Shown piece after piece: positions 10,760 through 29,506 of a DNA stretch of 55,535 nt (position 1 is its first letter; each line of letters begins with the position of its first letter). Under the pieces are notes generated by a model. The model did no database searches and was not told the DNA's origin. It worked only from the letters and a program-made list of their open reading frames with translations. The stretch comes from an uncultured Syntrophaceae bacterium (GTDB lineage: Bacteria > Desulfobacterota > Desulfomonilia > Desulfomonilales > Desulfomonilaceae), in NCBI GenBank assembly GCA_964497585.1, contig CAZCDS010000010.1, positions 1 through 55,535 of the forward strand, written 5' to 3'. A program made the translations under genes and the position numbers.

Positions 10760-10765
10760 TACACA

Positions 10766-11499: not shown

Positions 11500-11725
11500 G
11501 CGCGAAATAGCAGTTGCCAAAAGAAGTGGCAGATTTCTTGTGGAAAGATTGCGGAGGGCTCTTTTTTCGGCAAAAAACCACCCTCCGCACCTCCCACAAA
11601 AAACTCCATATTTTCGGCAAACTGCTCCGCTTTGCTTCGCGAGTTTGCAGGATGACGTAGGCGGTTTCTTGAAACATACGCCACCGGCAATAAGACAGAA
11701 TTTTTGACAATCAGTATAATTGCTC
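11500..11725 (+). promoter_or_regulatory. Duplicated ~230-bp leader/regulatory element, copy 1 (upstream of the lactonase-like gene).
   Basis: ~90% identical to 12781..13010. Contains a GCGGAGGGC...GCCCTCCGC hairpin and a TTGACA...TATAAT-like segment. Ends ~70 nt before ATG 11793. Confidence 0.6.
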
Positions 11726-11792
11726 GTTGTTCGCGCACGCTTCTGATTCCGCCGAGCCAGGTTCCGAATGCTCAGGTCGACGGAGACGCATC

Positions 11793-12746: not shown

Positions 12747-12780
12747 TCGTCTTGATCGAGGGATCGCGTTCCGCTCAGGT

Positions 12781-13010
12781 AGAGCCTGCGCTTATAGCAG
12801 GTGCCAAAAGAAATGGCAGATTTCTTGTGGAAAGATTGCGGAGGGCTCTTTTTTCGGCAGAAAGACCGCCCTCCGCACCTCCCGCAAAAAACTCCATATT
12901 TTCGGCAAACTGCTCCGCTTTGCTTTGCCAGTTTGCAGGATGATGTGGGGCGATTCTTGAAACACACGCCACCACCAATAAGACAGAATTTTTGACAATC
13001 GGTATATGAA
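12781..13010 (+). promoter_or_regulatory. Duplicated ~230-bp leader/regulatory element, copy 2 (upstream of the ThDP enzyme gene).
   Basis: Same ordered motifs as copy 1 (GCCAAAAGAA.TGGCAGATTTCTTGTGGAAAGATTGCGGAGGGCTCTTTTTTCGGCA.AAA.ACC.CCCTCCGCACCTCCC.CAAAAAACTCCATATTTTCGGCAAACTGCTCCGCTTTGCTT...AATAAGACAGAATTTTTGACAATC). Confidence 0.6.
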
Positions 13011-13040
13011 GATGAGCTTGACGTTTTCCGAGGAGACAGC

Positions 13041-14750
13041 ATGGTGAAAACAACCGAGTACATGATCAAAGCGCTTCGGGATCAGGGCATCAGCCACGTT
13101 TTTATCGGTCTTGGCGGCCTGAATGATAACTTCATGCCGCCTTTGACCGAAACCGAGGGTCTGAGGACAGTCGTCACCGCGTTCGAGGGTGGCGCGGCCT
13201 ATATGGCGGACGGCTATTCACGAGCTTCAGGCGGTCTCGGCGTGTGTTTCGGAATCGGTGGCCCAGGCGTTCTCAACATGACTACCGCGCTCGCCGCCGC
13301 AAGCACCGACCGCAGTTCGGTCCTCGCCGTCAGCGGTGAAGTCGCGCGGAGCTGGGAAGGAATGGGCGGCTTTCAGGACGCTTCCCAGGCCGCGATCGAC
13401 GATATCGACATTCTCCGGCGCATAGCGGGATTGTCGCTGTCGATGTCGTCAGCCGCGGTTGTTCCACGTCATCTCAGGCACGCCATAACGTACGCGTTCA
13501 CAAGGCGGTCACCAGTTCACTTGTCAGTGCCTGTCGATGTGCAGAAGGCGGAGATCCACGAAGAATGGCAGCCGATCCCGACATCGCTGTTGTCCGCGAA
13601 ATTCATCGACGAAGAAGCGTTCGCCACTGCGGTCGGCCTGCTCAATAACTCGGAGACCAGAAACATTATCGTACTCGCTGGTCCCGGCGTAAAGGGATAC
13701 GGCGCGGACATGCTGCTCCAGTTCGCGGAGCGGTTTGATGTCCCGGTGGCGACCACACTTTCGGGCAAAGGGGTGATGCCCGAAGATCATCCATTGGCGC
13801 TCGGCGTGTTCGGTTACGGGGGATCGCGTCCGGCGATCGATGCAATCTGCTCCGATGAGGTGGAGGTTCTGCTCGTCATCGGCTCCGGTTTGTCACAACG
13901 CGACACGATGCAATGGGACCCGAGAATGCTTCCCTCCAAGGCGCTGATTCAGGTGGACGCCGACCCGCTGCTGATCGGCCGGACCTGGACCGCCGATGCA
14001 CCGATTGTCGCCGATCCGGCCGCGCTGCTCAAAGAATTGGCGGATCTCCAGGACGCCGCGGAACTCGAGGCCGGTCGCAACTATCGTCTGGACTTTCTGC
14101 GCAAAATCAACGCGCTCGGTCCTCGCTGTTACAGCAGCGAAGACACGGAGAGCAACGCCATACCCATGCATCCGGCGCGGGTCGTGACAGAGCTTCGCGC
14201 GGCTTTCCCTGATAAAGGTGTGCTCTGCGTCGATTCCGGTGCGCACCGAGCCTGGTTCGCCGAGTATTGGGAAGCGCGCCATCCGGGGACCCACTTCTCT
14301 CTGACGAACCTCGGCCCGATGGGCGGAGCAATTCCACTCGGCATCGGCGCAAAGATGGCCCGGCCCGAGCGCCCGCTCATGGTCGCGACGGGAGATGGAT
14401 GTATGCTGATGCACGGCATGGAACTGCACACCGCTGCGCGCGAGGAGGTTCCGCTCGTCATCGCGCTGATGAACAACCAGGCGTACGGCAACATTTACTT
14501 TCGCGCCGCACAGATGGGACCCGGCCCAGAGCATCTCACCGATATTCCCGGCATCGACTGGGTCGCTTTTGCCAAATCGATGGGGGGTGATGGAGAGCGG
14601 GTGGAACGTCCCGAAGGCATCGCGGCGGCCGTCAGCCGTGGGCTCGACGCCTCGGGCCCGTATCTCCTGGATCTTCAAATTGACAAGACCTATCCAACGC
14701 CTGTCGGTGTCTGGCGGGCACGTCAGAAGGAATGGGAGGATAATGACTAA
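13041..14750 (+). CDS. Thiamine-diphosphate-dependent enzyme (acetolactate synthase / benzoylformate decarboxylase superfamily).
   Basis: 569 aa. N-terminal Pyr domain (GISHVFIGLGGLNDNFMPP...GIGGPGVLN), central domain, and C-terminal PP domain with a GDG...N ThDP motif (ATGDGCMLMHGMELHTA...NNQAYGN). Confidence 0.8.
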   Translation: MVKTTEYMIKALRDQGISHVFIGLGGLNDNFMPPLTETEGLRTVVTAFEGGAAYMADGYSRASGGLGVCFGIGGPGVLNMTTALAAASTDRSSVLAVSGEVARSWEGMGGFQDASQAAIDDIDILRRIAGLSLSMSSAAVVPRHLRHAITYAFTRRSPVHLSVPVDVQKAEIHEEWQPIPTSLLSAKFIDEEAFATAVGLLNNSETRNIIVLAGPGVKGYGADMLLQFAERFDVPVATTLSGKGVMPEDHPLALGVFGYGGSRPAIDAICSDEVEVLLVIGSGLSQRDTMQWDPRMLPSKALIQVDADPLLIGRTWTADAPIVADPAALLKELADLQDAAELEAGRNYRLDFLRKINALGPRCYSSEDTESNAIPMHPARVVTELRAAFPDKGVLCVDSGAHRAWFAEYWEARHPGTHFSLTNLGPMGGAIPLGIGAKMARPERPLMVATGDGCMLMHGMELHTAAREEVPLVIALMNNQAYGNIYFRAAQMGPGPEHLTDIPGIDWVAFAKSMGGDGERVERPEGIAAAVSRGLDASGPYLLDLQIDKTYPTPVGVWRARQKEWEDND

Positions 14751-15310
14751 TGGCCGAAATACCCGATCCCACCAATACGCTCGCTGGCAAGGACCGCGAA
14801 TTGTTCGAGCACATGGCGTCCGCGCGCGCATACGCCGAGGGCCGCTCCCATCTGGGCGATGTCTATGTGCGCATGTTCAACAACCCGGGCGTGACCGCGA
14901 AAGTCGGCGCCCTGGGCGAGCATCTGAGATTCCATGGCTTGCTGCCCGATGACGTACGTGAACTGGTGATCCTGCGTTTCTCCGCCCGGCAGGGGTTTCC
15001 CTACGAGTGGTCCCACCATCAGCGTCCGGCAAAGTTGGCCGGAATCAGCCAAGAGGTGATTGACGCCCTGACCGCGGGGGAGGTGCCCAACACGCTGCCT
15101 GATGCCTCACAGGCGACCCTTGAGGCCGTCGACGCGATCGTCGCGAAGAAATCCATCCCGGCAGATGTACAGCGACGATTCGTGGACGTCCATGGCGTGT
15201 CCGGCCTCGTCGAGGTCGTGGCCATCTGCGGCCTGTACTCGATCATGGGATACATGACCACCGCGTTCGACATCCAGATCGAGGAAGGGCTGCCAAAGCC
15301 ACCGTTTTAG
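14750..15310 (+). CDS. Carboxymuconolactone decarboxylase (AhpD-like) family protein.
   Basis: 186 aa. Overlapping TAATG coupling with the ThDP enzyme gene. Helical AhpD-like core. Confidence 0.55.
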   Translation: MAEIPDPTNTLAGKDRELFEHMASARAYAEGRSHLGDVYVRMFNNPGVTAKVGALGEHLRFHGLLPDDVRELVILRFSARQGFPYEWSHHQRPAKLAGISQEVIDALTAGEVPNTLPDASQATLEAVDAIVAKKSIPADVQRRFVDVHGVSGLVEVVAICGLYSIMGYMTTAFDIQIEEGLPKPPF

Positions 15311-15370
15311 GTACGCATCGGTTGTTCCGTGCGAAATCCAAACGCATCAAGCACTTTGATGAACGGACAC

Positions 15371-15483
15371 AATCAAGGAAGAGAAGGGTAAGAGTTTGCC
15401 GTGGAGGGCTTTCAGCAAAAGTGCCCTCCCCAGCCTTCTATCCAAAGTCTCTATCGCTTCGCGCCGGTAGCCCCCCGCCTGCG
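15371..15483 (+). repeat. Direct repeat copy 2 (orphan 3' end of the Mo-subunit gene plus terminator hairpin).
   Basis: Matches 3881..3985, including the codons encoding ...IKE.KG* and the GGAGGGC/GCCCTCC hairpin. No gene body upstream. Confidence 0.8.
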
Positions 15484-15630
15484 GCGAAGGCTTGCGTCCG
15501 CGACGTCGGGGACAACATACGTACCGTGAATGCTGCTGTAATCCGCCTTCGCTAGGGCACCGCGTGCCGTCTTCTCCCTTAGCGACCTTCAACCCATCGT
15601 AAGGGCTGTCAAGGCCGAGAGATAGGTATA

Positions 15631-16241
15631 GTGAACCCCGAACTACTTGAATCCGTTTTCTGCGGCCTGTATCCTGGACCGAGAAGGTGCAGTCTCGGAC
15701 AGGAGAGGAGTGCAGTATTCGTGAGAAGAATCTGCGCATGGTGCGGAAAGGACATGGGCTCGGTGGGGCCTGAAGGCGACGATCCAAAGCCGATTACCCA
15801 CACAGTATATGCGACGACTGTGCACATCACCAGCTTGCCCAGATAGGCATGAACGTGCCGGCCCTCCTTGAGGGCCTTCATTGTCCGGTGATTGTAGTAG
15901 ACTCCACTGGAATAATCGTGACCGGGAACACGAAGGCACTTGAGATGGTTAAGAAGGAGCTGTCGCAGGTTGAGGGCTACCCGGGAGGAGAGGTGTTTGA
16001 ATGCGAGCACGCAAGGCTTCCCGGTGGATGCGGTAATACGGTGCACTGCTCCGGATGCACCATAAGAAAAGCAGTGATGGAAACGCACTCAACAGGAAAG
16101 AGCCTTTTGAGAACTCCGGCCACCTTGCTCCAACACTCATCCGGAGATGCCAAGGAAATACGGCTGCTGATCTCCACGGAGAAGGTCGAGGATGTTGTGC
16201 TGCTGAGGATTGATGAGGTCAATCCGTCCGGTTCAATCTGA
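15631..16241 (+). pseudogene. Zinc-ribbon (CxWCGK...THxxCDDC) + Cys-rich PAS-like sensor protein. Probably one gene split by a frameshift near nt 15802.
   Basis: ORF 15631..15846 (frame 1) encodes ...ICAWCGKDMG...PITH. Frame 0 from 15774 continues ...SICDDCAHHQLAQIG-MNVPALLEGLHCPVIVVDSTGIIVTGNTKALEMV... to 16241. The joined product has a CxxC...CxxC ribbon followed by a PAS-like fold with CEHARLPGGCGNTVHCSGC. Confidence 0.45.
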
Positions 16242-16574: not shown

Positions 16575-17135
16575 GTGATGGGGAATCGTGGCGGTGTACC
16601 TCCGTTGCTCGCTTGGACGCGGCGAGTCATGGATTTGGCCACCAAGCTGATGCAGCTCATTCTTAGCGACTTACGTAACACTGATCGCCCCATAACGGAC
16701 TACGTTTGGCATGCTTGGTTTGTTATGATTATTCCAAGTCTTCCAATCGTGCTCATAGTATTCGCACTATTTGGACCACGCCTTACCCAAGCAGAATTAG
16801 ATGCTAGGCTCCCGTATATGACTTCGACAATGCATGGGGTAATGTTGGTGGTAGGGGCATGGATTGAGACCCTTGTCATGTGGCCAGTTCTATTTCTGCT
16901 TAGGCGAATCCTTGGCAATACCATCTGGGTTCCTGTCGTCTCCGGGTTGATCTGGGCCGGTCTTCATTTCTCTGGGGGGCAAGAGTGGGGCGTGTCGAAG
17001 ATTTGGAGCTTCTTCATTCTTTCAGTATGCTTCTTGGAATGGGAGAAGAAGTCGAAGGGCTTGGCTATTTTGGTCACAGGGCTGGTCCACATGATCTCAA
17101 ACATGGTTGGTTTCCTGTTGATGGTTTGGCTGTGA
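16575..17135 (+). CDS. CPBP-family (CAAX/Abi-like) intramembrane metalloprotease.
   Basis: 186 aa polytopic membrane protein with conserved E...R, FxxxH-like (WAGLHF) and HxxxN (HMISN) motifs. Local GC noticeably lower than flanks. Confidence 0.55.
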   Translation: MMGNRGGVPPLLAWTRRVMDLATKLMQLILSDLRNTDRPITDYVWHAWFVMIIPSLPIVLIVFALFGPRLTQAELDARLPYMTSTMHGVMLVVGAWIETLVMWPVLFLLRRILGNTIWVPVVSGLIWAGLHFSGGQEWGVSKIWSFFILSVCFLEWEKKSKGLAILVTGLVHMISNMVGFLLMVWL

Positions 17136-17314
17136 CCTTTCCTTTCTGAAAGTACCCGGAGTGTGGGAAGCGATAACCAGGCGAGTCGTATCCGAAAGAA
17201 TTTTGTCGGTGCCGGCCTCGCTAACCCTGAGAGTAGGGCTTCCCTTTGGGATCGGATGATTGATTCGATGATTCGATTGGATGAATCCTTGCGAAGCCGT
17301 TTGGCTAAACTCTA

Positions 17315-17535
17315 GTGGGTGCCCAAGGGTAGCCATCATTCTGATTCTGTGTCCATATTCCCTCTCGACAATTATGCGGTCCGAGCATCCCCCAATGATT
17401 GCCTCTCTTGCACAAGTCGGTCCCATTCTGCCGACTAACCGAACACCGACGCAAGGGCGGCCCGTCTTGCACGGGCTGGCACTCATCGTATGAGCCGTCA
17501 GGCCCCAGAGACACCTATGGTGTCCCCCGAACTCG
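17315..17535 (+). repeat. Interspersed structured repeat, copy C.
   Basis: Core TGTCCATATTCCCTCTCGACAATTATGCGGTCCGAGCATCCCCCAATGATTGCC, degenerate hairpin, tail AAGGGCGGCCCGTCTTGCACGGGCTGGCACTCATCGTATGAGCCGTCAGG and the AGAGACACCTATGGTGTCCCCC motif. Confidence 0.85.
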
Positions 17536-17686
17536 GCCCGAACTTCTGTCCCTCGAACTTTGCCTGCCGCGTATCGGGTCGACAGCACAGTCGGGATAAT
17601 GCCTGCTTTCAGCATGAGTCAACGTCTCTAGGGGCGTTACCCCGACGACCTTGACACGGCCCTTCGGGCACCCGAAGGGTGTGCGG

Positions 17687-19672
17687 TTATTCCGACGAGC
17701 ACGGTTCGCTCATCTCGCTCCCTGCTGTCGGGGCTTCCATGCGACTTTGAATCGTCTTGAACTGATAGAGATGCGCCAGTTGGCTTTGAGTCAGTCTTAG
17801 ACCTCGTTCCCGAAGCAACTTTGCAGTTTCTGTATGGCCGTTATGGACTGCCACCATAAGTGCCAGCTTGCCGAGGTTATTCTTGCCGGTAATTCTCGCT
17901 CCCTTGTCCAGCATGAGCCGGACCAGCTCAGTATCACCTGACTCGGCCGCCACTTCGATAGGAATGGTAAGAGGTCGGGGCACCTCTAGTCTCCCTCCGG
18001 AATAGTGCGTGACCAGGGCTTCGTTGACATCCGCTCCGTGTTCTACCAAGAGCCGCATAACTTGCAGATGGTGGCCGTCGGCAGCCGCGATCAAAGGGGT
18101 ACCATCGTACCTTGTTCCCGCTCGAACGTCGGCGCCCCTTGTCAGGAGGAATTCGACCACCTTCGCGTGACCTTTCTTTGCAGCCTCCAGTAAAGCTGAG
18201 CCGTCGCCACGGTTCCGGGGATTGATTTCCGCACCACCGTCTACGAGGATCTTAACCATTTTCAGGTCACCGCGTCGCGCGGCCTCCTTGAACGGTGTGC
18301 GTCCAAAACGCATCTCCTCGTTGGGATCGGCCCCCCGTGCCAGCAACAGTCGAGCGATCCTGTGCCTTCCGTATTGGACGGCGACAAAGAGCAGTGAACC
18401 GGTACCGCAAAACCTTTGTGCACGGTCGAGATCGCCCTACTCCTCTAGACGCCGGCGAACCTCCGCAGCATCCCCCACTGCGACGGCCCCATCGAGAGTC
18501 AGTTTGGCCCCAGCGTCTATCAGCACGTCGACCACGTCACTGTAACCAGAAAGGACGGCGATGGAAAGTGCCGTGGCGCCTTTCCAGACCGCATTGACAT
18601 CCGCTCCTCGGTCCGTGAGGAGTCTGATCGCCTTAGGGTGACCTCGACTGGCTGCGTACATGAGTACCGTCTCACCGTCCCTATTCCTGGCATTAGGGTC
18701 TGCCCCGGCCTCCAGCAGTATCTTTACGACTTCCGGCCGATTACCTTCAGCCGCGATCATGAGCGCTGTCTGTTGCCCCCACGGGTCTAACGCATTGATC
18801 TCGGCTCCCTTGCCCAGGAGCAGTCGTACGACGGCAGGATTACCTGCCCAAGCGGCGGTCATGAGAGCGGTCCAGGTCCTATAACTGTACGTCGCCGCAT
18901 TGACGTCGAGCCCTCGATCCAGAAGGAGCTTGACGACTTTCAGCCGGCCGTGTCGAACGGCCTCGTTGAAGGCGCTTTGGGTGAACTCGGCATTTCCTTT
19001 GAGGTTCTTGACGCGATCGAGAAGCAGTTTCACCACCTTCACGTGGCCGTGGCCGGCTGCCAACCTCGTAGACACTCTGATACTGGGTATGAGATCCGGG
19101 GGCACAGGTGCGTTGCCACTTCGCTCTTGCGTCTCGCCGGTCGAACCGACGGCCAAGTCCTCACTGAGAAGTCGTCGTACGGTTGCTGCGTCTCCGAGCA
19201 ACGCGGCACTGCTGAGGGTCTGTTTCGCTCCGTGGGTCAGGAGAAGCTTCACGATCTCAGTGTGCCCCTCGCCCGCAGCCACGTCTACGGCGGTCCTTCC
19301 GCGAGCAGTCACTGCACGCAAGTCTGCACCGTGATTCAAAAGCAGCTCGGTTATTTCGAGGTTCCCACGCCGAGCCGCGATCATCAAGGCCGCTGTACGA
19401 TACTTGTCCGCCTCATCCGCGTCGGCGGCCTCGCATAGCAGCCGTTTGGTGAGCCTGAGGTTCCCTTCCCTGACAGCATCCAAAAGGGGATTCCTATGCC
19501 ACCAGGGACGTGAGGTTACGTCAACACCGTGTTCTCTGTAATGAGCCTCAGCCTCCCGCGCAGGATCGGTGTCTGCAAGAACGTTGAGGGTCGGGAAGCT
19601 CGGGGCAAAACATACCAGTCCACCGATGAACACCGTCGCGGCGAACATGACGACGCGATTGCCGTGCATCAT
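17687..19672 (-). pseudogene. Secreted ankyrin-repeat protein (~660 aa) interrupted by an in-frame TAG at 18437..18439.
   Basis: ORFs 18437..19783 and 17687..18346 are in the same frame. Translation across the gap reads ...VRRRLEE*GDLDRAQRFCGTGSLLFVAVQYGRHRIARLLLARGADPNEE..., a continuous ankyrin repeat. The downstream part has no ATG of its own. N-terminus MMHGNRVVMFAATVFIGGLVCFA is a signal peptide (start 19672, RBS GGAG). Confidence 0.6.
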
Positions 19673-19741
19673 TCTTGACTCCTCTGGCGAGGCGAGTTGT
19701 CTCAAGCATTTGTCACCCTTGGGGACATCACCTCCGGCGAA

Positions 19742-19945
19742 ACCATCGTTGATTTTGAATCCATATTTGCGGCCGACAATCACGCGGTGCGAACGTTCCC
19801 CAATGATTGCCTCTCTTGGACACGTCGGTCCCTTTCTGCCGATTGACGGCGGACCGACTCAAGAGCGGCCCTCCCTCACTAGGTACAACCGTCCCATGAG
19901 CTGTCAGGCTACAGAGATGGGTATGGTGTTCCCAGGAATCTTGAA
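19742..19945 (+). repeat. Interspersed structured repeat, copy D.
   Basis: ATCCATATTTGCGGCCGACAATCACGCGGTGCGAACGTTCCCCAATGATTGCCTCTCTTGGACACGTCGGTCCC...GCCGATTGACGGCGGACCGAC..., lying between two ankyrin genes. Confidence 0.85.
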
Positions 19946-20018
19946 CCAGCCAACGAACGGCGCCGAGCCATTCCGCGCGAATCCTCACCGGGCTTACTGA
20001 GAGGTTACCTTCTCCGCA

Positions 20019-23000
20019 CTATTCCGTGGCACCTCGGGACCTGAGGAACTGAGCGACTTTCTTCTGTCCCTCGCACCGTGCCATCCACAGGGCAGTCCTG
20101 CCATACCTGCCTCTGCCGTTGATATCCGCTCCGTTATCCAGAAGAAGCTTGACTACATTCAGGTGACCTCGTTCTGCCGCCGACTGCAAAGGCGTGTGGC
20201 CGAGTGAGCCAGCCCGCGCGTTGACATCGGCACCATCATTTATCAGCCGTTGGACCTGTTGCACATCCCCCATGAGAGCGGCGACATCCAGCGTCATCAC
20301 AGCGCCACGCTCCAGGAGTATTCTTGCTTTTTCCGGGCTGCCGTATCGGACGGCGTTCTCCAGGGGAGTGCGGCCGTCTTTTGCTGTAACGTTGACGTGA
20401 GCCCCTTTATCCAGGAGCAGTTTCATGATGTCCACCTTGCCGGGCCTTGCCGCCGCAGCCATCAGGGGTGTATTTCCGAGGCCAGACCTGACATTGACAT
20501 CGGCGCCCTTGTCAAGGAGCAACTTCACCATTTCTAAGTCACTGCGTCCCCCGGCATACCAGGACAAGACGCTCCGGCCTCGTATGGTCCTCGTCCGGAT
20601 GTCAGCACCTCTGGCGATGAGCATTCTTGCTGCTTCGTGATGGGCGTACATGACTGCATCTTGAAGGGCAGTCGCGCCTTTATTGTCCACTATGTTCATA
20701 TCCGCGCCTCTCTTCACCAGCAAACTTACCAGGTCCAAGTTTCTGCCGAATCGGGCCGCGGCCATCAAGGCAGTCCTTCCCTTCTTGTCCGTAGCGTTTA
20801 CGTTTGCTCCGTTGTCAAGGAGAAATTTCACGTCTTGAAGAATGTGCTGCTTGGGAGAAGAGCCCTTTGCCCTGGTTCTGTATCTCGTGGCTCCGTTTAC
20901 GACAGCGACGAGTGGTGTGCGGCCATGTCGGTCCCTTGCGTTGATATCGGCCCCCTTGTCGAGCAGCAGCTTAGCTACCCACTCCTGGCCCGTGGCCAGT
21001 GCTTCTATTAGCAGCGGGTCACCATTGGGGCATCGTGCGTTGACGTTTGCTCCCTTTTCGATAAGCAGTTTCACCACTTCCGGACTCACGTTTCCATCAG
21101 GCAGGGAAGGCTCAATAGCGAAGTACAGAGGTGCTCCCCCGTGCATCCCCGCCATGTTCACATCAGCACCTCCTTCTATCAGCGCCTTGACCATCGCCAA
21201 CCTCCGTCCCATGCAAGCATCAGTTAGAGGCGTATGCCTGTCATGGCAGGACGATACGTTGACGCGAGCACCCTTTTGGGTGAGAAGCCTTACCATATCC
21301 AGATTGCCCTTCAGCGCGGCTATGGCCAGAGCTGTTTCTCCCCGGTTGTCTTTCGCGTTCACGTCGGCTTTGTATTGCAAGAGCAGTTTGACCAACCCCA
21401 TGTGGTTGCCTGATGCAGCGTGCACCAGTGCAGTTTGACCACGGGCATCCCGTGCGTTTACGTCGGCCCCTTGCTTGAGAACGACCTCCAGCCCTTTCTC
21501 GTCTTTCATAGCGGCCAGATGGCTCACGTTGAGCGTGACGCCACGGTCTTTCAGTAGTTTCACGACATTCGAGTGCCCATGCTCCATCGCTCTCAGGAGC
21601 GCGGTCATCCGGGACTGGTCCTGCTTTTTCGAGGAGTCCGCTCTGTCCAGCAATAGCTTCACCATGTCGGTTCGGCCATTCGCGGCTGCCAGGACTATTG
21701 GGCTGTCACCTCCTCGGTTCCCTCCCTTAGGAGGAACACCACTATCCAGAAGATACTTCACTACGTCGATGTGTCCCGCTGCAGTTGCCTGGAATAGTGC
21801 CTGCCCTCCCTGTCCGTTCTCTCCGGTAAGACGAGCCCCTTTCTTCACCAGCAGCTTCACCATTTCCAGATCGCCTTTCCCAGCTACCACGGTGAGTGCA
21901 GTGTAGCAGCTCTGGATTCTGGTTCCTCCCTCGCACGCCCAGTGGTTTACGTCCGCTCCATTATCGATAAGCAGCTTCATGACCTCCCGGTGGCCACCCA
22001 TGGCAGCGAGAACCAACGGATTGCCCACCATGGATGCGGGACCTTTGTTGACGTCAGCCTCATGCTCCAACAACAGTCGCACCATCTCGATGTGCCCACG
22101 CTGGGAGGCTTCTGCCAGTGGAGTCAACACGAACATCGCGTCAACGTTAGCCCCTCTGGCCAGCAGAAGCTCTGCAACTGCCTTGTAACCTCCTTGGGCA
22201 GCTACCATTAGCGGAGTTTGTCGGTCCATGAAGAGAGTAGTAGGACCCGGCCCTGCCCCTGCGTTCACACCCACTCCATTATCCAGGAGCGACCTTACCA
22301 CTTCCAAGTGCCCTTTTCCGGCAGCGGCCAAGAGGGCTTCGTTGCCACCGAGTCTACGGACCCTTTGAGCCTTATCATCCTTCATTTTGGCCAGTTGCCG
22401 CTTCACTTCCTCAACATCCCCCAGGACGGAAGCTACCTTGAGGGTCATTGGGACGCCCCGAGCCAGGAGCAGCTTGACTATATCGAGATGCCCTTTATCG
22501 GCAGCCGCCCACAATGCTTTCCTACCGCTGTCCCCTGTCGAGATGACATCAGGGCGCCTGTCCAGGATCAGTTTGACGATTGCTGAGTGCCCTGTCCGAG
22601 CGGCATCAGCAAGGGCGTCCGTGCTTGGTACACGCCCGGGGTTTGCATCGATCTCAGCCCCTCTTTCCAGGAGCAGATTCGCAATTTCCAGATGTCCCTT
22701 CAGTGCAGCATTAACCAATGGGGTGGCGTATTCTTTGTCTGAGTTGACATTCGCGCCTCGGTCCAGGAGAAGCTTCACCACTTCCAAGTGTCCGTGCAAA
22801 GCTGCCTCCCACAAGGCCGACCTCCCGCGGCCTCGTGCGTTGACGTCAGCCCCCCTGTCCAACAGGAGTTTCACAACTTCCAGGTGCCCGTTTCGAGCAC
22901 TAAGAGGCAGAGCCGCAAGGAAACTCTCGGCCGTAGGGTTCACATCGCTTCCCTTGGCAAGGAGGAGCTTCACCACCGCCATGTGTCCTCCTGCAGCGGC

Positions 23001-23219
23001 AGCAGCGAGCGGAGTGCGGCCGTTAGGGTATCGGGCATTGATATCAGATCCTCTGCTCAAGAGCCGCACAACCTCCTCCAAATGGCCTTTCGCGGCGGCT
23101 TTGATCAAGGCCCGGTCCTGGTCCGGCATCCGGTTAGACTGCCCAAGCGCCACCAGAGGCAACAGCAACGCGAAAGTCACCACCACTACCACACCGATAT
23201 GAAAGCGATTCAGGGACAC
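20019..23219 (-). CDS. Giant secreted ankyrin-repeat protein (~1066 aa, ~28 ankyrin repeats).
   Basis: Start re-assigned to GTG 23219 (GGAGG-N6-GTG), giving signal peptide VSLNRFHIGVVVVVTFALLLPLVALGQS. The 85 codons upstream in the ORF track are a read-through of the 23-nt tandem repeats (MVYPDSTGMVYPDST). The body is uninterrupted G-TPL-AA--GH---V--LL--GADVN repeats. Confidence 0.8.
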   Translation of the reverse strand: MSLNRFHIGVVVVVTFALLLPLVALGQSNRMPDQDRALIKAAAKGHLEEVVRLLSRGSDINARYPNGRTPLAAAAAGGHMAVVKLLLAKGSDVNPTAESFLAALPLSARNGHLEVVKLLLDRGADVNARGRGRSALWEAALHGHLEVVKLLLDRGANVNSDKEYATPLVNAALKGHLEIANLLLERGAEIDANPGRVPSTDALADAARTGHSAIVKLILDRRPDVISTGDSGRKALWAAADKGHLDIVKLLLARGVPMTLKVASVLGDVEEVKRQLAKMKDDKAQRVRRLGGNEALLAAAGKGHLEVVRSLLDNGVGVNAGAGPGPTTLFMDRQTPLMVAAQGGYKAVAELLLARGANVDAMFVLTPLAEASQRGHIEMVRLLLEHEADVNKGPASMVGNPLVLAAMGGHREVMKLLIDNGADVNHWACEGGTRIQSCYTALTVVAGKGDLEMVKLLVKKGARLTGENGQGGQALFQATAAGHIDVVKYLLDSGVPPKGGNRGGDSPIVLAAANGRTDMVKLLLDRADSSKKQDQSRMTALLRAMEHGHSNVVKLLKDRGVTLNVSHLAAMKDEKGLEVVLKQGADVNARDARGQTALVHAASGNHMGLVKLLLQYKADVNAKDNRGETALAIAALKGNLDMVRLLTQKGARVNVSSCHDRHTPLTDACMGRRLAMVKALIEGGADVNMAGMHGGAPLYFAIEPSLPDGNVSPEVVKLLIEKGANVNARCPNGDPLLIEALATGQEWVAKLLLDKGADINARDRHGRTPLVAVVNGATRYRTRAKGSSPKQHILQDVKFLLDNGANVNATDKKGRTALMAAARFGRNLDLVSLLVKRGADMNIVDNKGATALQDAVMYAHHEAARMLIARGADIRTRTIRGRSVLSWYAGGRSDLEMVKLLLDKGADVNVRSGLGNTPLMAAAARPGKVDIMKLLLDKGAHVNVTAKDGRTPLENAVRYGSPEKARILLERGAVMTLDVAALMGDVQQVQRLINDGADVNARAGSLGHTPLQSAAERGHLNVVKLLLDNGADINGRGRYGRTALWMARCEGQKKVAQFLRSRGATE

Positions 23220-23320
23220 AACCTGCCTCCTACTCCCAACGGATCGGTTGCCTGTTCGCGCTGACACTACCTGATGCACCAAAGTCTTCGCGTACGGAAT
23301 GCGCGTTCCCGAGTCAAGCC

Positions 23321-23412
23321 CGTGGAATGCGGGTACACCAATCCTAACTCCGTGTCCATATTTGCGGTTGACAATCACCTGGTCCGAGCGTCCCCCAATG
23401 ATTGGCCCTCTT
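23321..23412 (+). repeat. Interspersed structured repeat, copy E (5' half only).
   Basis: GTGGAATGCGGGTACACCAATCCTAACTCCGTGTCCATATTTGCGGTTGACAATCACCTGGTCCGAGCGTCCCCCAATGATTGG, then interrupted by copy F. Confidence 0.8.
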
Positions 23413-23655
23413 GTGGAATCTGGGTACACCATACCTGTGGAATCTGGGTACACCATACCTAATTCCGTGTGCATATTTCCTCTCGAGAATTACCGAGTCC
23501 GAACGTTCCTCCATGATTGCCCCTCTTGCCCACGTCGGTCCCCTGCCGCCGATTGACGGCGGACCGACGCAAGGGCGGCCCGTCTTGCACGGGCTGGCAC
23601 GCATCGTATGAGCCGTCAACGGCAGAGATAAGTATGGTCTCTCCCGAGGTTTCGA
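23413..23655 (+). repeat. Interspersed structured repeat, copy F (full length, with two perfect 23-nt 5' units).
   Basis: TGGAATCTGGGTACACCATACCTG x2, then core TGTGCATATTTCC..., the perfect hairpin GTCGGTCCCCTGCCGCCGATTGACGGCGGACCGAC, and tail AAGGGCGGCCCGTCTTGCACGGGCTGGCACGCATCGTATGAGCCGTCAACGGCAGAGATAAGTATGGTCTCTCCC. Confidence 0.85.
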
Positions 23656-23690
23656 ACTCTCATCTTCTCTGCGTGCAACCAGTGCAAAGG

Positions 23691-24092
23691 TCATTGCCCC
23701 ACATCCGTCCCTGACAATAAGCTCTGTACATGATCTATGAATGCCTGGACCTGAGCCGCTACGGAAGTACGATTCAAACTCTCTTCGTGAACGGGGTAAT
23801 CATATCGAAGTTGGACTGCGAAGTCCGTCAGGTCGACAAGGGACTCGAACCTCGTGCAGTCTTCCTGAGCTTGACTCTCCAGGAGACTCATCAGGAGCCT
23901 AAGGTCATGGGTCCTGGAATAACCGATGCGTCGAAGACTCAACCATGACTTCAGACCTTTTTCCACCGCTTGCTGGGCATGAAAACCGAAGATGGAATCC
24001 TCGAATAGCTCTCGATCGAGCATATTCCGGATCGCCTTCAGGTCCACCTTGGCGAGATTGAGCATCCTTTCCGCATCTTCACGGTCTATCAT
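23691..24092 (-). CDS. HEPN-domain protein (toxin component of a HEPN-MNT pair).
   Basis: 133 aa, all-helical, with an R-x(4-6)-H-like motif (RRIGYSRTHDL). 14-bp overlap with the upstream MNT gene. Confidence 0.65.
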   Translation of the reverse strand: MIDREDAERMLNLAKVDLKAIRNMLDRELFEDSIFGFHAQQAVEKGLKSWLSLRRIGYSRTHDLRLLMSLLESQAQEDCTRFESLVDLTDFAVQLRYDYPVHEESLNRTSVAAQVQAFIDHVQSLLSGTDVGQ

Positions 24093-24423
24093 AGAGGACC
24101 CTGCCTTCTTTCATGGAGCGGGCGATGACATGATTCGTGGAGTCCTTCCATTTCTCGATCTCCTCCGGCGTGAAGAGCAGTATGTCTATTGCCACGGGAA
24201 CCCCCCAGAGCGCTCGACGTATCCTGCTCGCCTCGGCCCACCGGGAGCCTCTATGAAACGAAGATTCCTTCTCTACGACGAGAAGATCCACGTCTGAATC
24301 CGGTCCTAACTCTCCCCGGACGGCAGATCCGAACAGAGTGATCCGCTCCGGTTCGGCGATCTCCAGCACCGCTTTCACAATGTCCTGAATTATCGACTCA
24401 ATGTCCCGGTTGATCTCGGTCAT
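24079..24423 (-). CDS. Minimal nucleotidyltransferase (MNT) antitoxin-like protein.
   Basis: 114 aa with GSAVRGELGPDSDVDLLV (G-S-x9-13-D-x-D nucleotidyltransferase motif). Confidence 0.7.
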   Translation of the reverse strand: MTEINRDIESIIQDIVKAVLEIAEPERITLFGSAVRGELGPDSDVDLLVVEKESSFHRGSRWAEASRIRRALWGVPVAIDILLFTPEEIEKWKDSTNHVIARSMKEGRVLYDRP

Positions 24424-24751: not shown

Positions 24752-25987
24752 GTGACGCGACGCATCTACATGGACAACGCAGCAACAAGCTTTCCCAAGC
24801 CGCCTCAGGTGACCGAGGCCATGGTCCATTTCATGCTGGAGGTCGGTGCGAACCCGGGACGATCCCGCCACGATCAGTCCAGGGAAGCCGCCAAAATGGT
24901 GAAAGAGACGAGGGAAGCCCTTGCAACGCTGTTCAATGTTCCCGAACCGAACCGCATCGTGTTCACGCTCAACGCCACGGAATCGCTCAACACGGTTATC
25001 TACGGGACCCTGGAGCCAGGAGACCACGTGATCATAACCCAGATGGAACACAATTCCGTGATCCGGCCGGTCAGGCACCTGGAGAGCACAGGGACGATCA
25101 CCGTTTCCGTCTCGCCCTGCGACAGGATGGGCGTCTGCGACGTCGATGCTATCAAAGGGCTGATCCGGGACAATACCAGGCTGGTCGCGGTCAACCATGC
25201 CTCGAACGTCTGCGGTACGATCCAGGACATCCGGGCCGTGCGGGAAGCCGTCGGGGACGTGCCGTTGCTCGTGGACGTAGCCCAGACCGCGGGCGCGGTT
25301 CCGATCGACGCGCAGGAGATGGGAATCGATTTCCTTGCGTTCACCGGTCACAAGGCGTTGTACGGCCCGCAGGGCACGGGTGGGCTCTACGTCCGGGAAG
25401 GGCTCCCCATCAAACCCCTCAAACGAGGAGGCACAGGGAGCGTGTCCGACAATGAACACCAGCCGGATTTCTTCCCCGATTACCTGGAGAGCGGAACTAT
25501 GAACAACGTTGGAATCGCGGGACTGCAGGCCGGGGTCAATTTTGTCCTTGATACCGGCGTGGAGAATATCCGACAACACGACGGAAAACTCCTTGCGGCA
25601 TTCGTGGACGGTCTGATGGGCGTGCCAGGATTGACGCTCTATGGGCCGCTCAAGCCGGAAAAGCAGACGGCCATCCTCTCCATGACCTTCGACGAGGCAC
25701 TTCCTGAGGGTCTGCACCATACCATCGGCGGATGCGGCGGCCGAGCCATCCCTGCCGCCTTCGAGTCGATCCATCCACAGGAAGCCGGATCGATCCTCAA
25801 GGAAGAGCACGAAATTTCCGTCAGAGTAGGACTCCACTGCGCTCCCCTCGCGCACCGCGCGCTCGGCTCGTACCCAGACGGCACCGTCAGGTTCAGCCTC
25901 GGGTACTTCAATACGCTCGAGGAAGTGCGGATCGCGGTCAGCGCAGTCAAGAGACTTGCCGAGAAGGTGGATTACCTGGATGATTGA
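24752..25987 (+). CDS. Class-V aminotransferase-fold PLP enzyme (cysteine desulfurase NifS/SufS-like family).
   Basis: 411 aa. MDNAATSFPKP N-terminus, PLP-lysine motif FLAFTGHKALYGPQGTGGLYV, and C-terminal RVGLHCAP characteristic of cysteine desulfurases. Confidence 0.75.
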   Translation: MTRRIYMDNAATSFPKPPQVTEAMVHFMLEVGANPGRSRHDQSREAAKMVKETREALATLFNVPEPNRIVFTLNATESLNTVIYGTLEPGDHVIITQMEHNSVIRPVRHLESTGTITVSVSPCDRMGVCDVDAIKGLIRDNTRLVAVNHASNVCGTIQDIRAVREAVGDVPLLVDVAQTAGAVPIDAQEMGIDFLAFTGHKALYGPQGTGGLYVREGLPIKPLKRGGTGSVSDNEHQPDFFPDYLESGTMNNVGIAGLQAGVNFVLDTGVENIRQHDGKLLAAFVDGLMGVPGLTLYGPLKPEKQTAILSMTFDEALPEGLHHTIGGCGGRAIPAAFESIHPQEAGSILKEEHEISVRVGLHCAPLAHRALGSYPDGTVRFSLGYFNTLEEVRIAVSAVKRLAEKVDYLDD

Positions 25988-26117
25988 TAAGACTTGCGCG
26001 TTTGCGAGGACAATCTCTGTCGGGATTGCTCGGATCGGTTCACTGTCCAGCGGCAAAATGATATCATCATCAACCGATTCGTTTTGGAGAGAAGCGATGC
26101 GGTGAGGATGTGAGCCC

Positions 26118-26459
26118 TTGAGATCAAGACTCCTCGAAGAGTTGAGTGCCAAGCTTAGCCCGGTTTTTCGCAAATACGGGGTGCTTCGCGCGATAGCTTT
26201 CGGCTCTCTCGCCCGTGGCGACGAATCGAAGAAGAGCGATCTGGACCTCATTATCATCCAGGATTCTGACAAGCGCTTCCTCGATCGGTACGAGGGTATC
26301 CTGCATGACGTGACCGCGACCGTACGCGGACGGGACGTGGATCTGCTTATCTACACTCCGGATGAGTTGGAACGGATGTCCGAGCGCCGCTTCATCAAGA
26401 CCGCCCTGAACGAAGGGATCGTCCTTTATGAGCAGGACCGACAACAGACACCAAGCTGA
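26118..26459 (+). CDS. Minimal nucleotidyltransferase (MNT) antitoxin-like protein, second pair.
   Basis: 113 aa, FGSLARGDESKKSDLDLII motif. Confidence 0.7.
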   Translation: MRSRLLEELSAKLSPVFRKYGVLRAIAFGSLARGDESKKSDLDLIIIQDSDKRFLDRYEGILHDVTATVRGRDVDLLIYTPDELERMSERRFIKTALNEGIVLYEQDRQQTPS

Positions 26460-26844
26460 GCGATGGCTCCTCACCGCGCGCGAGGATCTCGCTGCCGCGG
26501 AAGCACTTCTCGGCGCCGGCATGTACCCCCAAGCCTGTTTCTACTCACAGCAAGCTGCTGAGAAGGCCGTGAAATCCCTGTGGTACATGATCGACTCGGA
26601 CCCGTGGGGTCATTCCGTCCAGCGCCTCATCACCGATTTCCCGGAAAGGGATACCATTCCCGATCCAAATACCTGGGCGCAAAAAGGCGCGCTTCTCGAC
26701 CAGTTCTACATTCCCACCCGATACCCTAACGGACTCCCGGATCTGACTCCCGGCCAAACCTATAAGAAGGAAGACGCCCTCCGAGGCATCGAAGCGGCAC
26801 GAATGCTGCTGGAAGGCTGTGGGAAATGGCTTGAGTCCCGGTAG
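26428..26844 (+). CDS. HEPN-domain protein, second pair.
   Basis: 138 aa helical protein overlapping the MNT gene by 32 bp. Classic MNT-HEPN operon order. Confidence 0.6.
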   Translation: MSRTDNRHQAERWLLTAREDLAAAEALLGAGMYPQACFYSQQAAEKAVKSLWYMIDSDPWGHSVQRLITDFPERDTIPDPNTWAQKGALLDQFYIPTRYPNGLPDLTPGQTYKKEDALRGIEAARMLLEGCGKWLESR

Positions 26845-26890
26845 GAGAAGCCAAGCCTTGAAACGTTTCTCGGGTCTTCGAAGATCCACA

Positions 26891-27800: not shown

Positions 27801-29177
27801 TCATTCCCCCAGCAGCTCGGCAACGTCAATTCCGTACTTCTTGATCCTGTTCCAAACGGTCTGACGACTCACCCCCAGCATTTCCGCCGCGATCTTCCTT
27901 TTCCCGCCCGCCCTTACGAGAGTGTCAATGAGATGCTGCTTTTCGGTACGGCCGATGGGTTTCTCGTGAAATGCAGTGAGCGGGGGAGGCCGGTCCAGTA
28001 TAGACTCGGGGAGATGAGCCCGGGTAATAAGATCTCCCGTGCAGACCACAAACGCATATTCCAGGACGTTTATCAATTCCCGGACGTTTCCGGGCCAATG
28101 GTAGCGTGCCAGGAGACGCATGCCCTCGTGATCGATGCCCCTGACCGTTTTGCCGGACCTCGACGCCGCGTCCCCGATGAACTTCTCGATCAACAGCGGG
28201 AGGTCGCCGGGCCGCTCTCGAAGGGGAGGAATCGAAATGGGAATCACGTTCAGACGAAAGAAGAGGTCCTCGCGAAAGAGCCCTTGCGCCATCATCTGCC
28301 GCAGGTCCCTATGCGTGGCCGCGATGACCCGAACATCGATCGGAACCGGTCTGTAGTCACCTACCCGCTCAATCTCCTTCTCCTGGAGTACTCTCAGCAG
28401 GCGCACCTGAGTGGGCGGCGGCAGGTCCCCGATCTCGTCGAGGAAGATGTCTCCCGAGTTCGCGGCCTGGAACCGTCCTTTTGTGGTCCGATCCGCCCCC
28501 GTGAACGCGCCCTTTACGTGTCCGAATAGTTCGCTCTCCAGCAGAGTTTCACTCAACGCGGCGCAGTTCACCCGAATGAAAGGGCCGGCGCTCTTCATGC
28601 CCAGTCGGTGAATCACGCTTGCCACGAGTTCTTTGCCTGTTCCGCTCTCGCCGTAGATGAGCACCGGCGCATCCGATCCAGCGGCCTTGGCGATAATGTC
28701 ATAGAGATTCTTCATCTGCGGGGAAACTCCGATGATGCCGTAAAAGCCTGCCCGGTCCTCGAGCATGCTGCGGAGCTGAGTGATCTCCTCGTCCTTCTGG
28801 TCGACCGCCGTCATGTCGGTGATGGTCTCGACAGCGCAGCTGACCTCTCCCCTGTCGTCGTGCAGGATTCGGGACCTCTTAAGGATTGGCAAGTACGTTC
28901 CGTCCTTCCGTCTCAGAGCGCATCGCGTCTTTGGCAGGTCACCGACCCTGAAGAGGCCGCAACCCTCGCGCCTGCCGCTAGCTCCCACATCGGGACAGAC
29001 GTCGCAGTCAAGCACTGAACAGGGTTTTCCCAACATTTCCTCTGCCGCGTATCCGGTAATCGACTCCATGGCACTGTTGACGAACAGAATAGTGGTGTCC
29101 GGAGCGACGAGCATGAGGCCGTCTGTCAAGGTGTCGAGCACCGACTTCCAAAAAGGCGATTTTTCGTCACCTAGCAC
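27801..29177 (-). CDS. σ54-dependent transcriptional activator (bacterial enhancer-binding protein) with an N-terminal Cys-rich PAS sensor domain and a C-terminal Fis-type HTH.
   Basis: GESGTGKE Walker A, GAFTGA σ54-contact motif, ...[11 protein letters not shown]..., C-terminal ...[18 protein letters not shown]. The PAS region carries [10 protein letters not shown]...GCGLF. Confidence 0.9.
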
Positions 29178-29194
29178 TGATTTTTCTCCAGGGC

Positions 29195-29235
29195 ATTTCT
29201 GTCAAGAATATGTTATCTAACATGACAATTTTCGT
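29195..29235 (+). promoter_or_regulatory. Candidate UAS/operator (TGTCA-N18-TGACA with an internal ATGTTATCTAACAT palindrome) between the divergent EBP gene and the σ54 promoter.
   Basis: Inverted repeats ~300 nt upstream of the -24/-12 element, the typical distance for enhancer-binding protein sites. Confidence 0.35.
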
Positions 29236-29506
29236 CAAGATCGTTACCTCGCCTTTACATGCACGCGACAACGTCGACATGTTGCTGCCCGACCTCCCAT
29301 AGGGACGGATATCCCCCTGACATGAGGACTGGTTTCCTTCATTTTCTGGGAGGGAACGGGTTTGATCGCAGGAGCGGCCCGAGCAGGAAGAGACCGAGCC
29401 GGGCAGGAATCCCATCGCCATAGAGGGTTCTGCTGTACTGAGAAGAAGCTGTGGTGTCAATTACATAGAATGATCATTTGCTTTCTGATGACCCAAATGC
29501 ACACTT

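Follow-up and report, generated by a model that had tools for sequence, protein, structure and literature searches.

Two ankyrin-repeat (ANK) genes stand next to each other on the minus strand of the window, the 55,535-nucleotide stretch of DNA that we analyzed. The intact one (20019-23219) encodes a giant protein of 1066 amino acids, composed of a predicted signal peptide followed by ~30 ANK repeats, and terminates in a TAG stop codon at 20019-20021. The second (17687-19672) has the same build when its 661 codons are translated in one frame, and it is broken by an in-frame TAG, as a sequence-only reading of this DNA had described for a gene of ~660 amino acids. A third signal-peptide ANK protein of 451 amino acids is encoded on the same strand at 38334-39689. 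All objects described in that earlier reading lie where it had placed them. The clustered pair resides in a lineage-specific island of ~20.8 kb (3903-24751).

An intact giant ankyrin gene

The open reading frame of the giant spans 20019-23474. Its supported start is the GTG at 23219, positioned 6 nt past GGAGTAGGAGG, which gives exactly the 1066 amino acids assigned previously. The 85-codon N-terminal extension (to 23474) is spurious and encoded by copies of a repeat, repeat X, described below. Because the gene caller took the longer 1151-aa ORF, an exact look-up of the 1066-aa product returned no match.

The Pfam ANK models (PF12796/PF00023) recognize the giant, with Ank_2 matching at E=4e-179 (582 bits versus a cut-off of 27.3). 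A home-made repeat HMM delineates 29 repeat units, and an AF2 model built from a 25-sequence alignment (pLDDT 85.7) predicts 30-31 helix pairs, so that the earlier count of ~28 repeats was slightly low. The alignment was used in place of single-sequence prediction, which at a pLDDT of 52 was unusable. The helix pairs are predicted to stack as helix-turn-helix units into a solenoid whose global shape is uncertain (pTM 0.53) and which has a low-confidence break at mature residues 234-265. A Foldseek search with this model returned the 24-repeat domains of ankyrin-1 (E=5e-34) and AnkB (E=1e-33), and NOMPC was also among the top matches. The repeats within both clustered genes have diverged at the DNA level and TRF found no array inside either gene, which indicates that the ANK repeats are not the product of a recent neutral amplification.

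A nonsense codon in the second gene

The second gene starts with an ATG at 19672 that is preceded by GAGGAG. A single stop, the TAG at 18437-18439 on the minus strand, divides its one frame into 411 and 250 codons. Both halves match Pfam Ank_2 (218 and 144 bits versus the cut-off of 27.3), and the 250 codons past the TAG are still open and repeat-like, with matches to the repeat HMM down to E=1e-11. The TAG recurs in contig L036, which Logan assembled independently from run SRR14802572 and which is 100% identical over 6111 bp. Because the TAG occupies a variable position of the LLxxGAxxN repeat motif, it probably arose from an AAG. The second gene is likely a recent pseudogene, or else yields a truncated 411-aa product; no start codon or ribosome-binding site lies where it could drive expression of its downstream part. 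Pyrrolysine incorporation or read-through was rejected, since TAG is an ordinary stop in the window that terminates 9 of the 30 genes, the giant included.

Predicted export of the ankyrin proteins

All three ANK proteins begin with a short basic n-region and an uncharged hydrophobic run of 16-23 residues, and none has another hydrophobic segment. The signal-peptide calls were made by heuristic n/h/c analysis. On the minus strand, the predicted Sec signal peptides span 23142-23219 in the giant (MSLNRFH-IGVVVVVTFALLLPLVALG, with QSN following the cleavage site) and 19574-19672 in the second gene (MMHGNR-VVMFAATVFIGGLVCFAPSFPTLNVLA, followed by DTD). Small residues occupy positions -3 and -1 of the predicted cleavage sites, which fall between ALG and Q in the giant, VLA and D in the second protein, and VHG and L in the third, near residues 26, 33 and 23, respectively. 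The signal peptide of the giant, its sole hydrophobic segment, further carries a proline at -6 ahead of A-L-G at -3 to -1. By heuristic inspection, the three N-termini contain neither a twin-arginine motif nor a lipobox. Together with the Pfam ANK matches, these Sec-type N-termini bear out the earlier description of secreted-type ankyrin proteins, the one at 38334-39689 included.

The Sec signal predicts a periplasmic location by analogy with Rickettsia RARP-1, which was long assumed to be secreted and was experimentally placed in the periplasm (bioRxiv 10.1101/2022.02.23.481736). Within a view limited to 55 kb of the genome, the ANK proteins may also be exported beyond the outer membrane; no component of a T1SS, T2SS, T3SS or T4SS was found in the 55-kb window. 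In the giant, with a hydrophobic run of 19 residues between balanced charges, the segment may instead be an uncleaved signal anchor. Acidic regions after the hydrophobic segment in the second and third proteins favor an exported C-terminal part.

The third protein and its conserved family

The third protein, encoded outside the island, joins 3 ANK repeats to a phosphodiester-glycosidase-like C-terminal domain (Pfam). Its orthologues are 90-93% identical and form a conserved Desulfomonilaceae family, with hundreds of relatives in Desulfomonilaceae and Thermodesulfobacteriota, most of which lack the ANK module. It is a member of a different, conserved family and no paralogue of the cluster. The sequence-only reading had set a widespread periplasmic housekeeping scaffold against its own proposal; that description roughly fits the third protein, but not the clustered pair, since neither gene has an orthologue.

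The ankyrin pair resides on a lineage-specific island

The island is inserted between a Mo-enzyme large-subunit gene and a cysteine desulfurase gene. In 11 related Desulfomonilaceae loci these flanking genes are 88-2045 bp apart, versus 20,850 bp here, and both island junctions are reproduced at 100% in independent Logan contigs (L038 and L039). No ANK, CPBP-like or HEPN/MNT gene lies near the cysteine desulfurase in 32 related loci, save one small unrelated ANK gene (L002). A megablast search of the island against 72,556 plasmids gave no match, promoter and terminator scans returned nothing beyond chance, and the ORF at 4041-4439 showed no paralogy with the PAS-like ORF.

Besides the ANK pair, the island contains VapBC (PIN toxin), HEPN-MNT, an Avs4-like STAND NTPase, a divergent CPBP-like gene and all copies and fragments of repeat X. 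One MNT/HEPN toxin-antitoxin-type pair lies upstream of the giant on the minus strand (23691-24423; MNT 24079-24423, NTP_transf_2 at 1e-11; HEPN 23691-24092, 4e-13), and both HEPN-MNT pairs noted before are confirmed. The gene previously called a CPBP protease (16575-17135, plus strand) is convergent with the second ANK gene and encodes a putative, divergent CPBP (Rce1-like) membrane protein. It has no direct Pfam or NCBIfam match, even at E<=1, but the label gains transitive support from its 369 homologues: 34 of 60 aligned homologues match PF02517 (best 1.6e-7), and E98, H131, H172 and N176 are invariant or nearly so among them. The closest homologue (80% DNA identity) resides on a contig that has neither an ANK gene nor repeat X, and in this one comparison available the link between CPBP and ANK genes is not conserved. 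The proposed linkage to CPBP, HEPN-MNT and repeats hence holds as co-residence in the 20.8-kb island, not as a conserved operon. No partner gene for the clustered ANK proteins is evident.

The Avs4-like NTPase, the PIN toxin and HEPN-MNT raise the alternative that the N-terminal hydrophobic segment stays uncleaved as a membrane anchor and the ANK array faces the cytoplasm, where it would work with these defence-type genes, for example as a phage sensor or decoy. The length and balanced charges of the giant's run would suit such an arrangement, and among the PADLOC models, PDC-M72A, 'Ankyrin' and MzaA hit the ANK proteins. However, these PADLOC/NCBIfam matches cover ANK repeats only and score far under the equivalog cut-offs (MzaA 308 bits versus 800), and the partner components of the matched systems are absent. 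The ANK genes are 8-13 kb from the NTPase, with unrelated metabolic genes in between, and the acidic regions described above speak for export. We regard a membrane-anchored defence role as very improbable.

The GC3 of the ANK genes is 0.60-0.65, versus 0.72-0.79 for the flanking backbone genes, and their codon adaptation is likewise below that of the backbone. These values, the abundance of selfish modules and repeats around the pair, the nonsense codon in one of the two genes and the lack of an orthologue for either would agree with decaying or neutral cargo, acquired horizontally with the island, functionless here and now being lost. By contrast, short of a very recent arrival, selection would probably be needed to maintain a 3.2-kb ORF that has an intact signal peptide, ~30 well-formed repeats and a good ribosome-binding site, and the DNA-level divergence of the repeats speaks against recent neutral amplification. 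On balance, functionless cargo appears unlikely.

A structured repeat brackets the ankyrin genes

Repeat X is a structured repeat of ~200-250 nt that occurs as six copies and two fragments, all 8 inside the island (blastn self-hits, nhmmer). Its orientation is identical in 8/8, and one copy sits in nearly every inter-module spacer. Copies bracket both clustered ANK genes: copy 3 lies downstream of the second gene (17308-17551; nhmmer E=4e-65), copy 4 between the two genes (19730-19950), and copies 5 (partial, 23298-23428) and 6 (23416-23666) together upstream of the giant (23298-23666). All of these were found on the plus strand by blastn self-hits, alignment and nhmmer. Copies 5-6 hold an exact 24-nt tandem duplication at 23412-23460.

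A 29-nt core pattern of repeat X occurs 6 times, versus 0 expected in shuffles. Read as a possible MITE, repeat X has several copies and terminal inverted repeats, although the latter match imperfectly (14/19 to 17/22); no target-site duplication or partner transposase was identified. Rfam gave nothing at gathering score, its sole match being a chance-level twister-sister (E=4.5), and the window contains no tRNA. The core pattern had 0 matches in metagenome_contigs and viral_contigs, and nhmmer found repeat X in none of 35 related loci (L001-L035) and not in L037. An integron-cassette reading of the repeat-bracketed genes was rejected: inspection of the consensus by eye on both strands revealed no attC cores (RYYYAAC/GTTRRRY), and the window contains no integrase. 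Still more speculatively, the ANK genes and the toxin-antitoxin/defence modules might be the cassettes of a system for building cassette arrays or islands that is not yet described and would use repeat X in place of attC as its junction element. The giant would then be an exported 'conflict' protein that is exchanged rapidly and directed against grazers, partners or competitors; we give this idea a slim chance.

Host lineage and relatives of the ankyrin proteins

Neighboring conserved genes are 72-80% identical to those of Desulfomonilaceae and Desulfomonile tiedjei metagenome-assembled genomes (MAGs), which assigns the window to a sulfate-reducer relative of the family Desulfomonilaceae; the cysteine desulfurase next to the island shares 79% identity with a Desulfomonilaceae MAG and 75% with a D. 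tiedjei MAG. Among 5.8 billion proteins, neither the giant nor the second gene has an orthologue, the best matches reaching a repeat-driven 35-41% identity. The sole exception, a truncated second-gene product, is identical and stems from the same sequencing run. Among the 117 best matches to the second gene, a crude N-terminal heuristic marks 54 as long ANK proteins of environmental bacteria whose N-termini resemble signal peptides. D. tiedjei DSM 6799 is itself a documented free-living outlier, with 42 ANK proteins of which 19 have signal sequences (PMC3932732; Jernigan & Bordenstein 2014, PeerJ 2:e264). The lineage, the D. tiedjei inventory and the environmental matches all qualify the earlier view that such arrays are unusual in free-living bacteria.

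The sequence-only reading had further proposed host-interaction effectors. Such secreted effectors or adhesins, once exported by Sec, would pass the outer membrane as well and manipulate another cell, be it of an animal host, a grazing protist or a partner in syntrophy; a block of phagocytosis is one example. Sponge symbionts and their phages have been reported to encode signal-peptide ANK proteins that reduce phagocytosis, and the rapid turnover seen here (no orthologues, one fresh pseudogene) would suit genes under conflict. Host-associated bacteria are enriched in ANK proteins, and the D. tiedjei survey speculated that the ANK set of this species serves its syntrophic interactions (PMC3932732). 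Yet the lineage is free-living, the window lacks the secretion components listed above, and RARP-1 shows that an ANK protein once assumed secreted can be periplasmic. With the NCBIfam equivalog models for Dot/Icm Ank proteins, scores are 73-308 bits versus cut-offs of 450-1400 (best AnkH, 280 versus 600), so far under the cut-offs that the matches reflect repeats only. We find an effector role improbable.

Discussion

We favor, as the probable explanation, that the pair encodes accessory Sec-exported, periplasmic, protein-binding solenoids carried as island cargo, one of which was recently inactivated. Each ANK gene would be translated from its own ribosome-binding site, as seen in the sequence. 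Judging from the N-terminal heuristics, the signal peptide would then direct the protein to SecYEG, and signal peptidase I would cut after ALG or VLA. The mature giant of ~1040 amino acids is predicted to fold its ~30 stacked helix-turn-helix repeats into an elongated, curved periplasmic solenoid. By analogy with RARP-1, Bdellovibrio Bd3460 and Pseudomonas AnkB, the concave groove may bind one or more protein partners, so that the giant could act as a scaffold, tether or inhibitor. In the second gene, one nonsense mutation following codon 411 would recently have abolished function.

The abundance of signal-peptide ANK proteins in free-living Desulfomonile has been unexplained since 2014, and this locus adds to that question. 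Some of these genes, at a minimum, are carried on an island, lack orthologues and, because one is freshly broken, are turning over, so that they are no core scaffolds. Lineage-wide conservation is seen for others, among them the gene for the ANK-glycosidase-like protein (38334-39689), which makes two classes separable for functional tests. ANK arrays in this lineage reach ~30 repeats. The intact giant is a concrete candidate for functional study; no new mechanism is revealed here.

Comparison with known ankyrin systems

The clustered pair belongs to the signal-peptide ANK expansion already documented for Desulfomonile. It shares with the D. tiedjei set the family-level lineage, a composition of ANK repeats only with signal sequences, long arrays and adjacent gene clusters, of which Desti_0108-0110, 4612-4613 and 5169/5172/5175 are published examples (PMC3932732). 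Unlike in D. tiedjei, where SMART counts of 23, 21 and 19 repeats are listed and 23 is the maximum (PMC3932732), the giant has ~30 repeats, above every D. tiedjei entry in the published table. An island location is demonstrated for the ANK genes here and absent from the published D. tiedjei description.

The Dot/Icm (T4SS) effectors of Legionella and Coxiella are likewise bacterial ANK-repeat proteins. They use C-terminal T4SS signals and are not known to use Sec signal peptides, whereas the present proteins carry predicted Sec signals and come from a free-living lineage.

Closer in location are RARP-1, Bd3460 and Pseudomonas AnkB, periplasmic ANK proteins that bind bacterial envelope proteins and are conserved within their own lineages. 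RARP-1 has periplasmic partners (bioRxiv 10.1101/2022.02.23.481736), and Bd3460 inhibits DD-endopeptidases (PMC4686830). Bd3460 and AnkB are both encoded beside their partner, whereas the present pair, with ~30 repeats in the giant, has neither orthologues nor a conserved partner gene. With 1066 and 661 residues, the clustered proteins are not small ANK proteins beside a target enzyme of the Bd3460 type; among the adjacent genes, the CPBP-like one alone resembles an enzyme gene, and this adjacency is missing at its closest homologue. Bd3460 and Pseudomonas AnkB are small, with a few repeats each, and in Pseudomonas aeruginosa AnkB is linked to catalase.

In sequence and fold, the best matches of the giant are eukaryotic: the 24-repeat membrane-binding domain of ankyrin-R/B (4RLV, 8CS9) and the 29-repeat spring of NOMPC (5VKQ). 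These form continuous superhelical arrays of comparable or shorter length, in which an extended inner groove binds several partners. They differ in being cytoplasmic and in having extra domains, whereas the giant is bacterial and, apart from its predicted signal peptide, made up entirely of ANK repeats, with an identity of 23-28% to its eukaryotic counterparts at the level of the repeats.

Two clustered ankyrin genes, one of them interrupted

Three minus-strand open reading frames span 17687-23474, the longest of which (20019-23474, 1151 codons) has its 5' end within an intergenic repeat. The supported start of this giant gene is a GTG at 23219, 6 nt past GGAGTAGGAGG, from which we obtained the 1066-aa ankyrin protein that an earlier, sequence-only reading had described. 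Every ankyrin model in Pfam matches it (Ank_2, E=4e-179), and an HMM trained on the protein's own repeat units detects 29 of them. An AlphaFold2 model based on a 25-sequence alignment of long ankyrin proteins displays 30-31 helix pairs (pLDDT 85.7, pTM 0.53; single-sequence pLDDT 52), with mature residues 234-265 as the sole low-confidence stretch. By sequence and by fold, the giant most resembles the 24-repeat domain of ankyrin-R/B, NOMPC and DARPins, a likeness at the level of the repeat (23-36% identity).

The adjacent second gene (17687-19672, minus strand) begins with an ATG at 19672 preceded by GAGGAG; its 661 codons share one reading frame, broken once by a TAG at 18437-18439. TAG is an ordinary stop in the window, where it terminates nine of 30 genes including the giant, and the next start codon 3' of it is a mid-repeat TTG that lacks a ribosome-binding site. 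Because the stop falls on a variable position of an 'LLxxGAxxN' motif, its simplest origin would be one AAG-to-TAG change. The 250 codons beyond it are open and keep good scores against the repeat HMM, which argues that the nonsense lesion is recent and the gene a fresh pseudogene. An artefact of the window's assembly was considered and rejected, as a 6111-bp contig of the Logan assembly of run SRR14802572 matches 17453-23563 at 100% identity and carries the identical stop.

The two genes share 30-36% identity, not above generic ankyrin similarity. At the DNA level their repeats have drifted apart, and Tandem Repeats Finder detects an array in neither gene, pointing to an old array and against recent amplification as its source.

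The ankyrin cluster lies on a mosaic island

In 11 related loci, the Mo-enzyme large-subunit gene (1521-3902) and the cysteine desulfurase gene (24752-25987; closest to genes of Desulfomonilaceae and Desulfomonile tiedjei MAGs, 69-79% identity) are 88-2045 bp apart; in the window 20,850 bp separate them. At the cysteine-desulfurase site, all 32 related loci lack the ankyrin and CPBP-like genes as well as the HEPN/MNT pair. Each junction of the inserted stretch recurs at 100% identity in a Logan contig of its own (L038, 1314-10067; L039, 23896-28044).

This insertion, 3903-24751, is a mosaic. Its left end encodes a 1760-aa STAND P-loop NTPase (4555-9837, plus strand), probably a divergent antiviral STAND gene, with weak Avs4 similarity (81.5 bits in NCBIfam, where the cut-off is 1500; PADLOC Avs4, E=5e-18). 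A VapBC-type pair, composed of a VapC-like PIN-domain toxin (10319-11017, minus strand) and a candidate 83-aa antitoxin ORF directly upstream, sits between the first two copies of a repeat element, X. The remaining members are an SMP-30/gluconolactonase-like gene (11727-12746), a TPP-enzyme gene, a CMD-family gene, a small PAS-like ORF, the CPBP-like gene (16575-17135, plus strand), the two ankyrin genes and an MNT-HEPN pair recognized by Pfam. No match to the island turned up among the plasmid records.

GC3 and codon adaptation of the ankyrin genes (0.60-0.65) resemble those of the other island genes and lie below those of flanking backbone genes (0.72-0.79), and we found no orthologue of either gene among 5.8 billion public proteins. 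Together with their location, these features mark the pair as accessory island cargo. One gene is interrupted and the other intact; that the pair is neutral cargo in decay strikes us as improbable.

X (about 200-250 nt) occurs in six copies (9921-10160, 11208-11422, 17308-17551, 19730-19950, 23298-23428, which is partial, and 23416-23666) and two right-end fragments of about 57 nt (4100-4158 and 15592-15648). All eight lie on the plus strand within the island, with none across the other 34.7 kb of the window. Nearly every inter-module spacer holds one, so that each ankyrin gene has copies on both sides. X forms conserved hairpins, and its two ends are complementary, though imperfectly; it has no match in Rfam, no attC-type core site on inspection, and no counterpart in the related loci, JGI metagenomes and viral contigs searched. 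Logan contigs terminate inside its copies, as expected of a multi-copy element, and we regard X as what it looks like, an unclassified MITE- or REP-like element.

Other repeats were also seen. Copies of a 275-nt direct repeat (75% identity) at 3880-4155 and 15370-15644 both terminate in an X right-end fragment; the copy at 15370 opens with a duplicate of the Mo-enzyme gene's final ~20 nt (caatcaagga..gggtaa), after which comes the same terminator-like hairpin. The pair resembles an att-type duplication around an 11-kb sub-segment of the island, 4156-15369. A 213-nt direct repeat (92% identity; 11507-11718 and 12794-13006) lies on either side of the gluconolactonase-like gene, and a 59-nt piece of it matches the related genome L028 at 83%. 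At the island's intergenic site, three related genomes hold a different 1.6-2 kb insert that encodes an ORF of 419-439 aa (L004, 6327-7961; L013, 7958-10000; L016, 4037-6080); insertions may recur at this site.

Compared with related Desulfomonilaceae genomes, the window has two further insertions, one at 25988-26890 with a second MNT-HEPN pair (26118-26844) and one at about 27830-31940. The latter, of ~4 kb, carries a gene for a sigma-54 activator (27801-29177) and one for a multihaem cytochrome c that has a fused cytochrome b561-like domain (30201-31916). Further along the window are genes for a 1122-aa protein with a zinc ribbon, an adenylate/guanylate cyclase domain, AAA_16 and TPR repeats (46738-50106, plus strand), a protein with a putative AbiC-like domain (50496-51587, plus strand) and an SPFH/flotillin-like protein (52080-53600, minus strand). 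A 158-nt direct repeat (71% identity) has one copy near the start (45535-45692) and one just beyond the end (46469-46626) of an AraC-family regulator gene (45484-46398).

The CPBP-like neighbour and the third ankyrin protein

The CPBP-like protein has no direct match in Pfam or NCBIfam. An exhaustive search returned 369 homologues; among 60 that were aligned, 34 match PF02517 and Glu98, His131, His172 and Asn176 are conserved, suggesting a divergent CPBP-family member. This branch comprises ~160-aa membrane proteins (369 representatives) with a conserved Glu/His/His-x3-Asn pattern, many of which, 16575-17135 included, PF02517 misses. The nearest homologue shares 80% DNA identity across the gene and 190 nt upstream, with homology ending just past the stop codon, and its contig bears neither an ankyrin gene nor a copy of X. 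The proposed linkage of CPBP and ankyrin genes thus was not conserved in this one comparison.

The third ankyrin protein (38334-39689, minus strand), encoded outside the island, differs in kind from the clustered pair. It fuses three ankyrin repeats to a phosphodiester-glycosidase-like domain, has orthologues of up to 90-93% identity, and has hundreds of relatives in Desulfomonilaceae and Thermodesulfobacteriota, mostly without the ankyrin module. The C-terminal family is very large in these groups and mostly missed by Pfam.

The clustered ankyrin genes, the stop, the third protein and the repeats were all as the sequence-only reading had reported. To these, our analysis adds the island context, the likely fresh pseudogene and the split between orthologue-less island genes and a conserved ankyrin-enzyme family.

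Predicted export and comparison with known ankyrin proteins

By a heuristic on n/h/c features, the n-region of all three ankyrin proteins is short and basic, the hydrophobic run is uncharged and 16-23 residues long, and the -3/-1 site has small residues (ALG|QS, VLA|DT, VHG|LT); none has a further hydrophobic segment, a twin-arginine motif or a lipobox. The earlier interpretation stands in part: the heuristic agrees with its signal peptides, and the CPBP adjacency was not conserved in the single comparison above. The giant's hydrophobic run spans 19 residues with balanced flanking charge, so its N-terminus may be an uncleaved anchor. A membrane-anchored cytoplasmic array cooperating with the defence-type neighbours is nevertheless very unlikely, as PADLOC and NCBIfam matches to defence-associated ankyrin proteins cover repeats only, far under cut-offs.

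Jernigan & Bordenstein (PeerJ 2014, PMC3932732) named Desulfomonile tiedjei DSM 6799 as the sole free-living bacterium to reach 20 ankyrin proteins or more. Its set numbers 42, 19 with signal sequences, and includes arrays of up to 23 SMART repeats and several adjacent gene clusters; the authors speculated about a role in syntrophy. By a crude heuristic, signal-peptide-like N-termini occur in 15 of the 120 best matches to the giant and 54 of 117 to the second gene. Many of these are ankyrin-only proteins of 800-1800 aa from environmental MAGs, and a single MAG contributes two (947 and 1067 aa). Large exported ankyrin arrays thus appear to be a recurring trait of environmental bacteria, particularly the Desulfomonilaceae lineage, and the clustered pair is a further case of this known kind.

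The best-supported reading, which we consider reasonably probable, is that such a protein would be exported by Sec and cleaved by signal peptidase, that its long solenoid would reside in the periplasm, and that the concave groove would bind proteins, acting as scaffold, tether or inhibitor. The gene structure, the ankyrin identity of the repeats, the position on the island, the lack of orthologues and the nonsense codon are shown by the data, and export, cleavage, compartment and binding function are inferred from them and from analogy. An extracellular effector aimed at grazers or partners is unlikely: NCBIfam Dot/Icm ankyrin matches again cover repeats only, far under cut-offs. As analogies for the periplasmic solenoid, we used two experimentally characterised ankyrin proteins with Sec signals. 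RARP-1, contrary to earlier assumptions, is periplasmic and not secreted, and Bd3460 is periplasmic and inhibits DD-endopeptidases.
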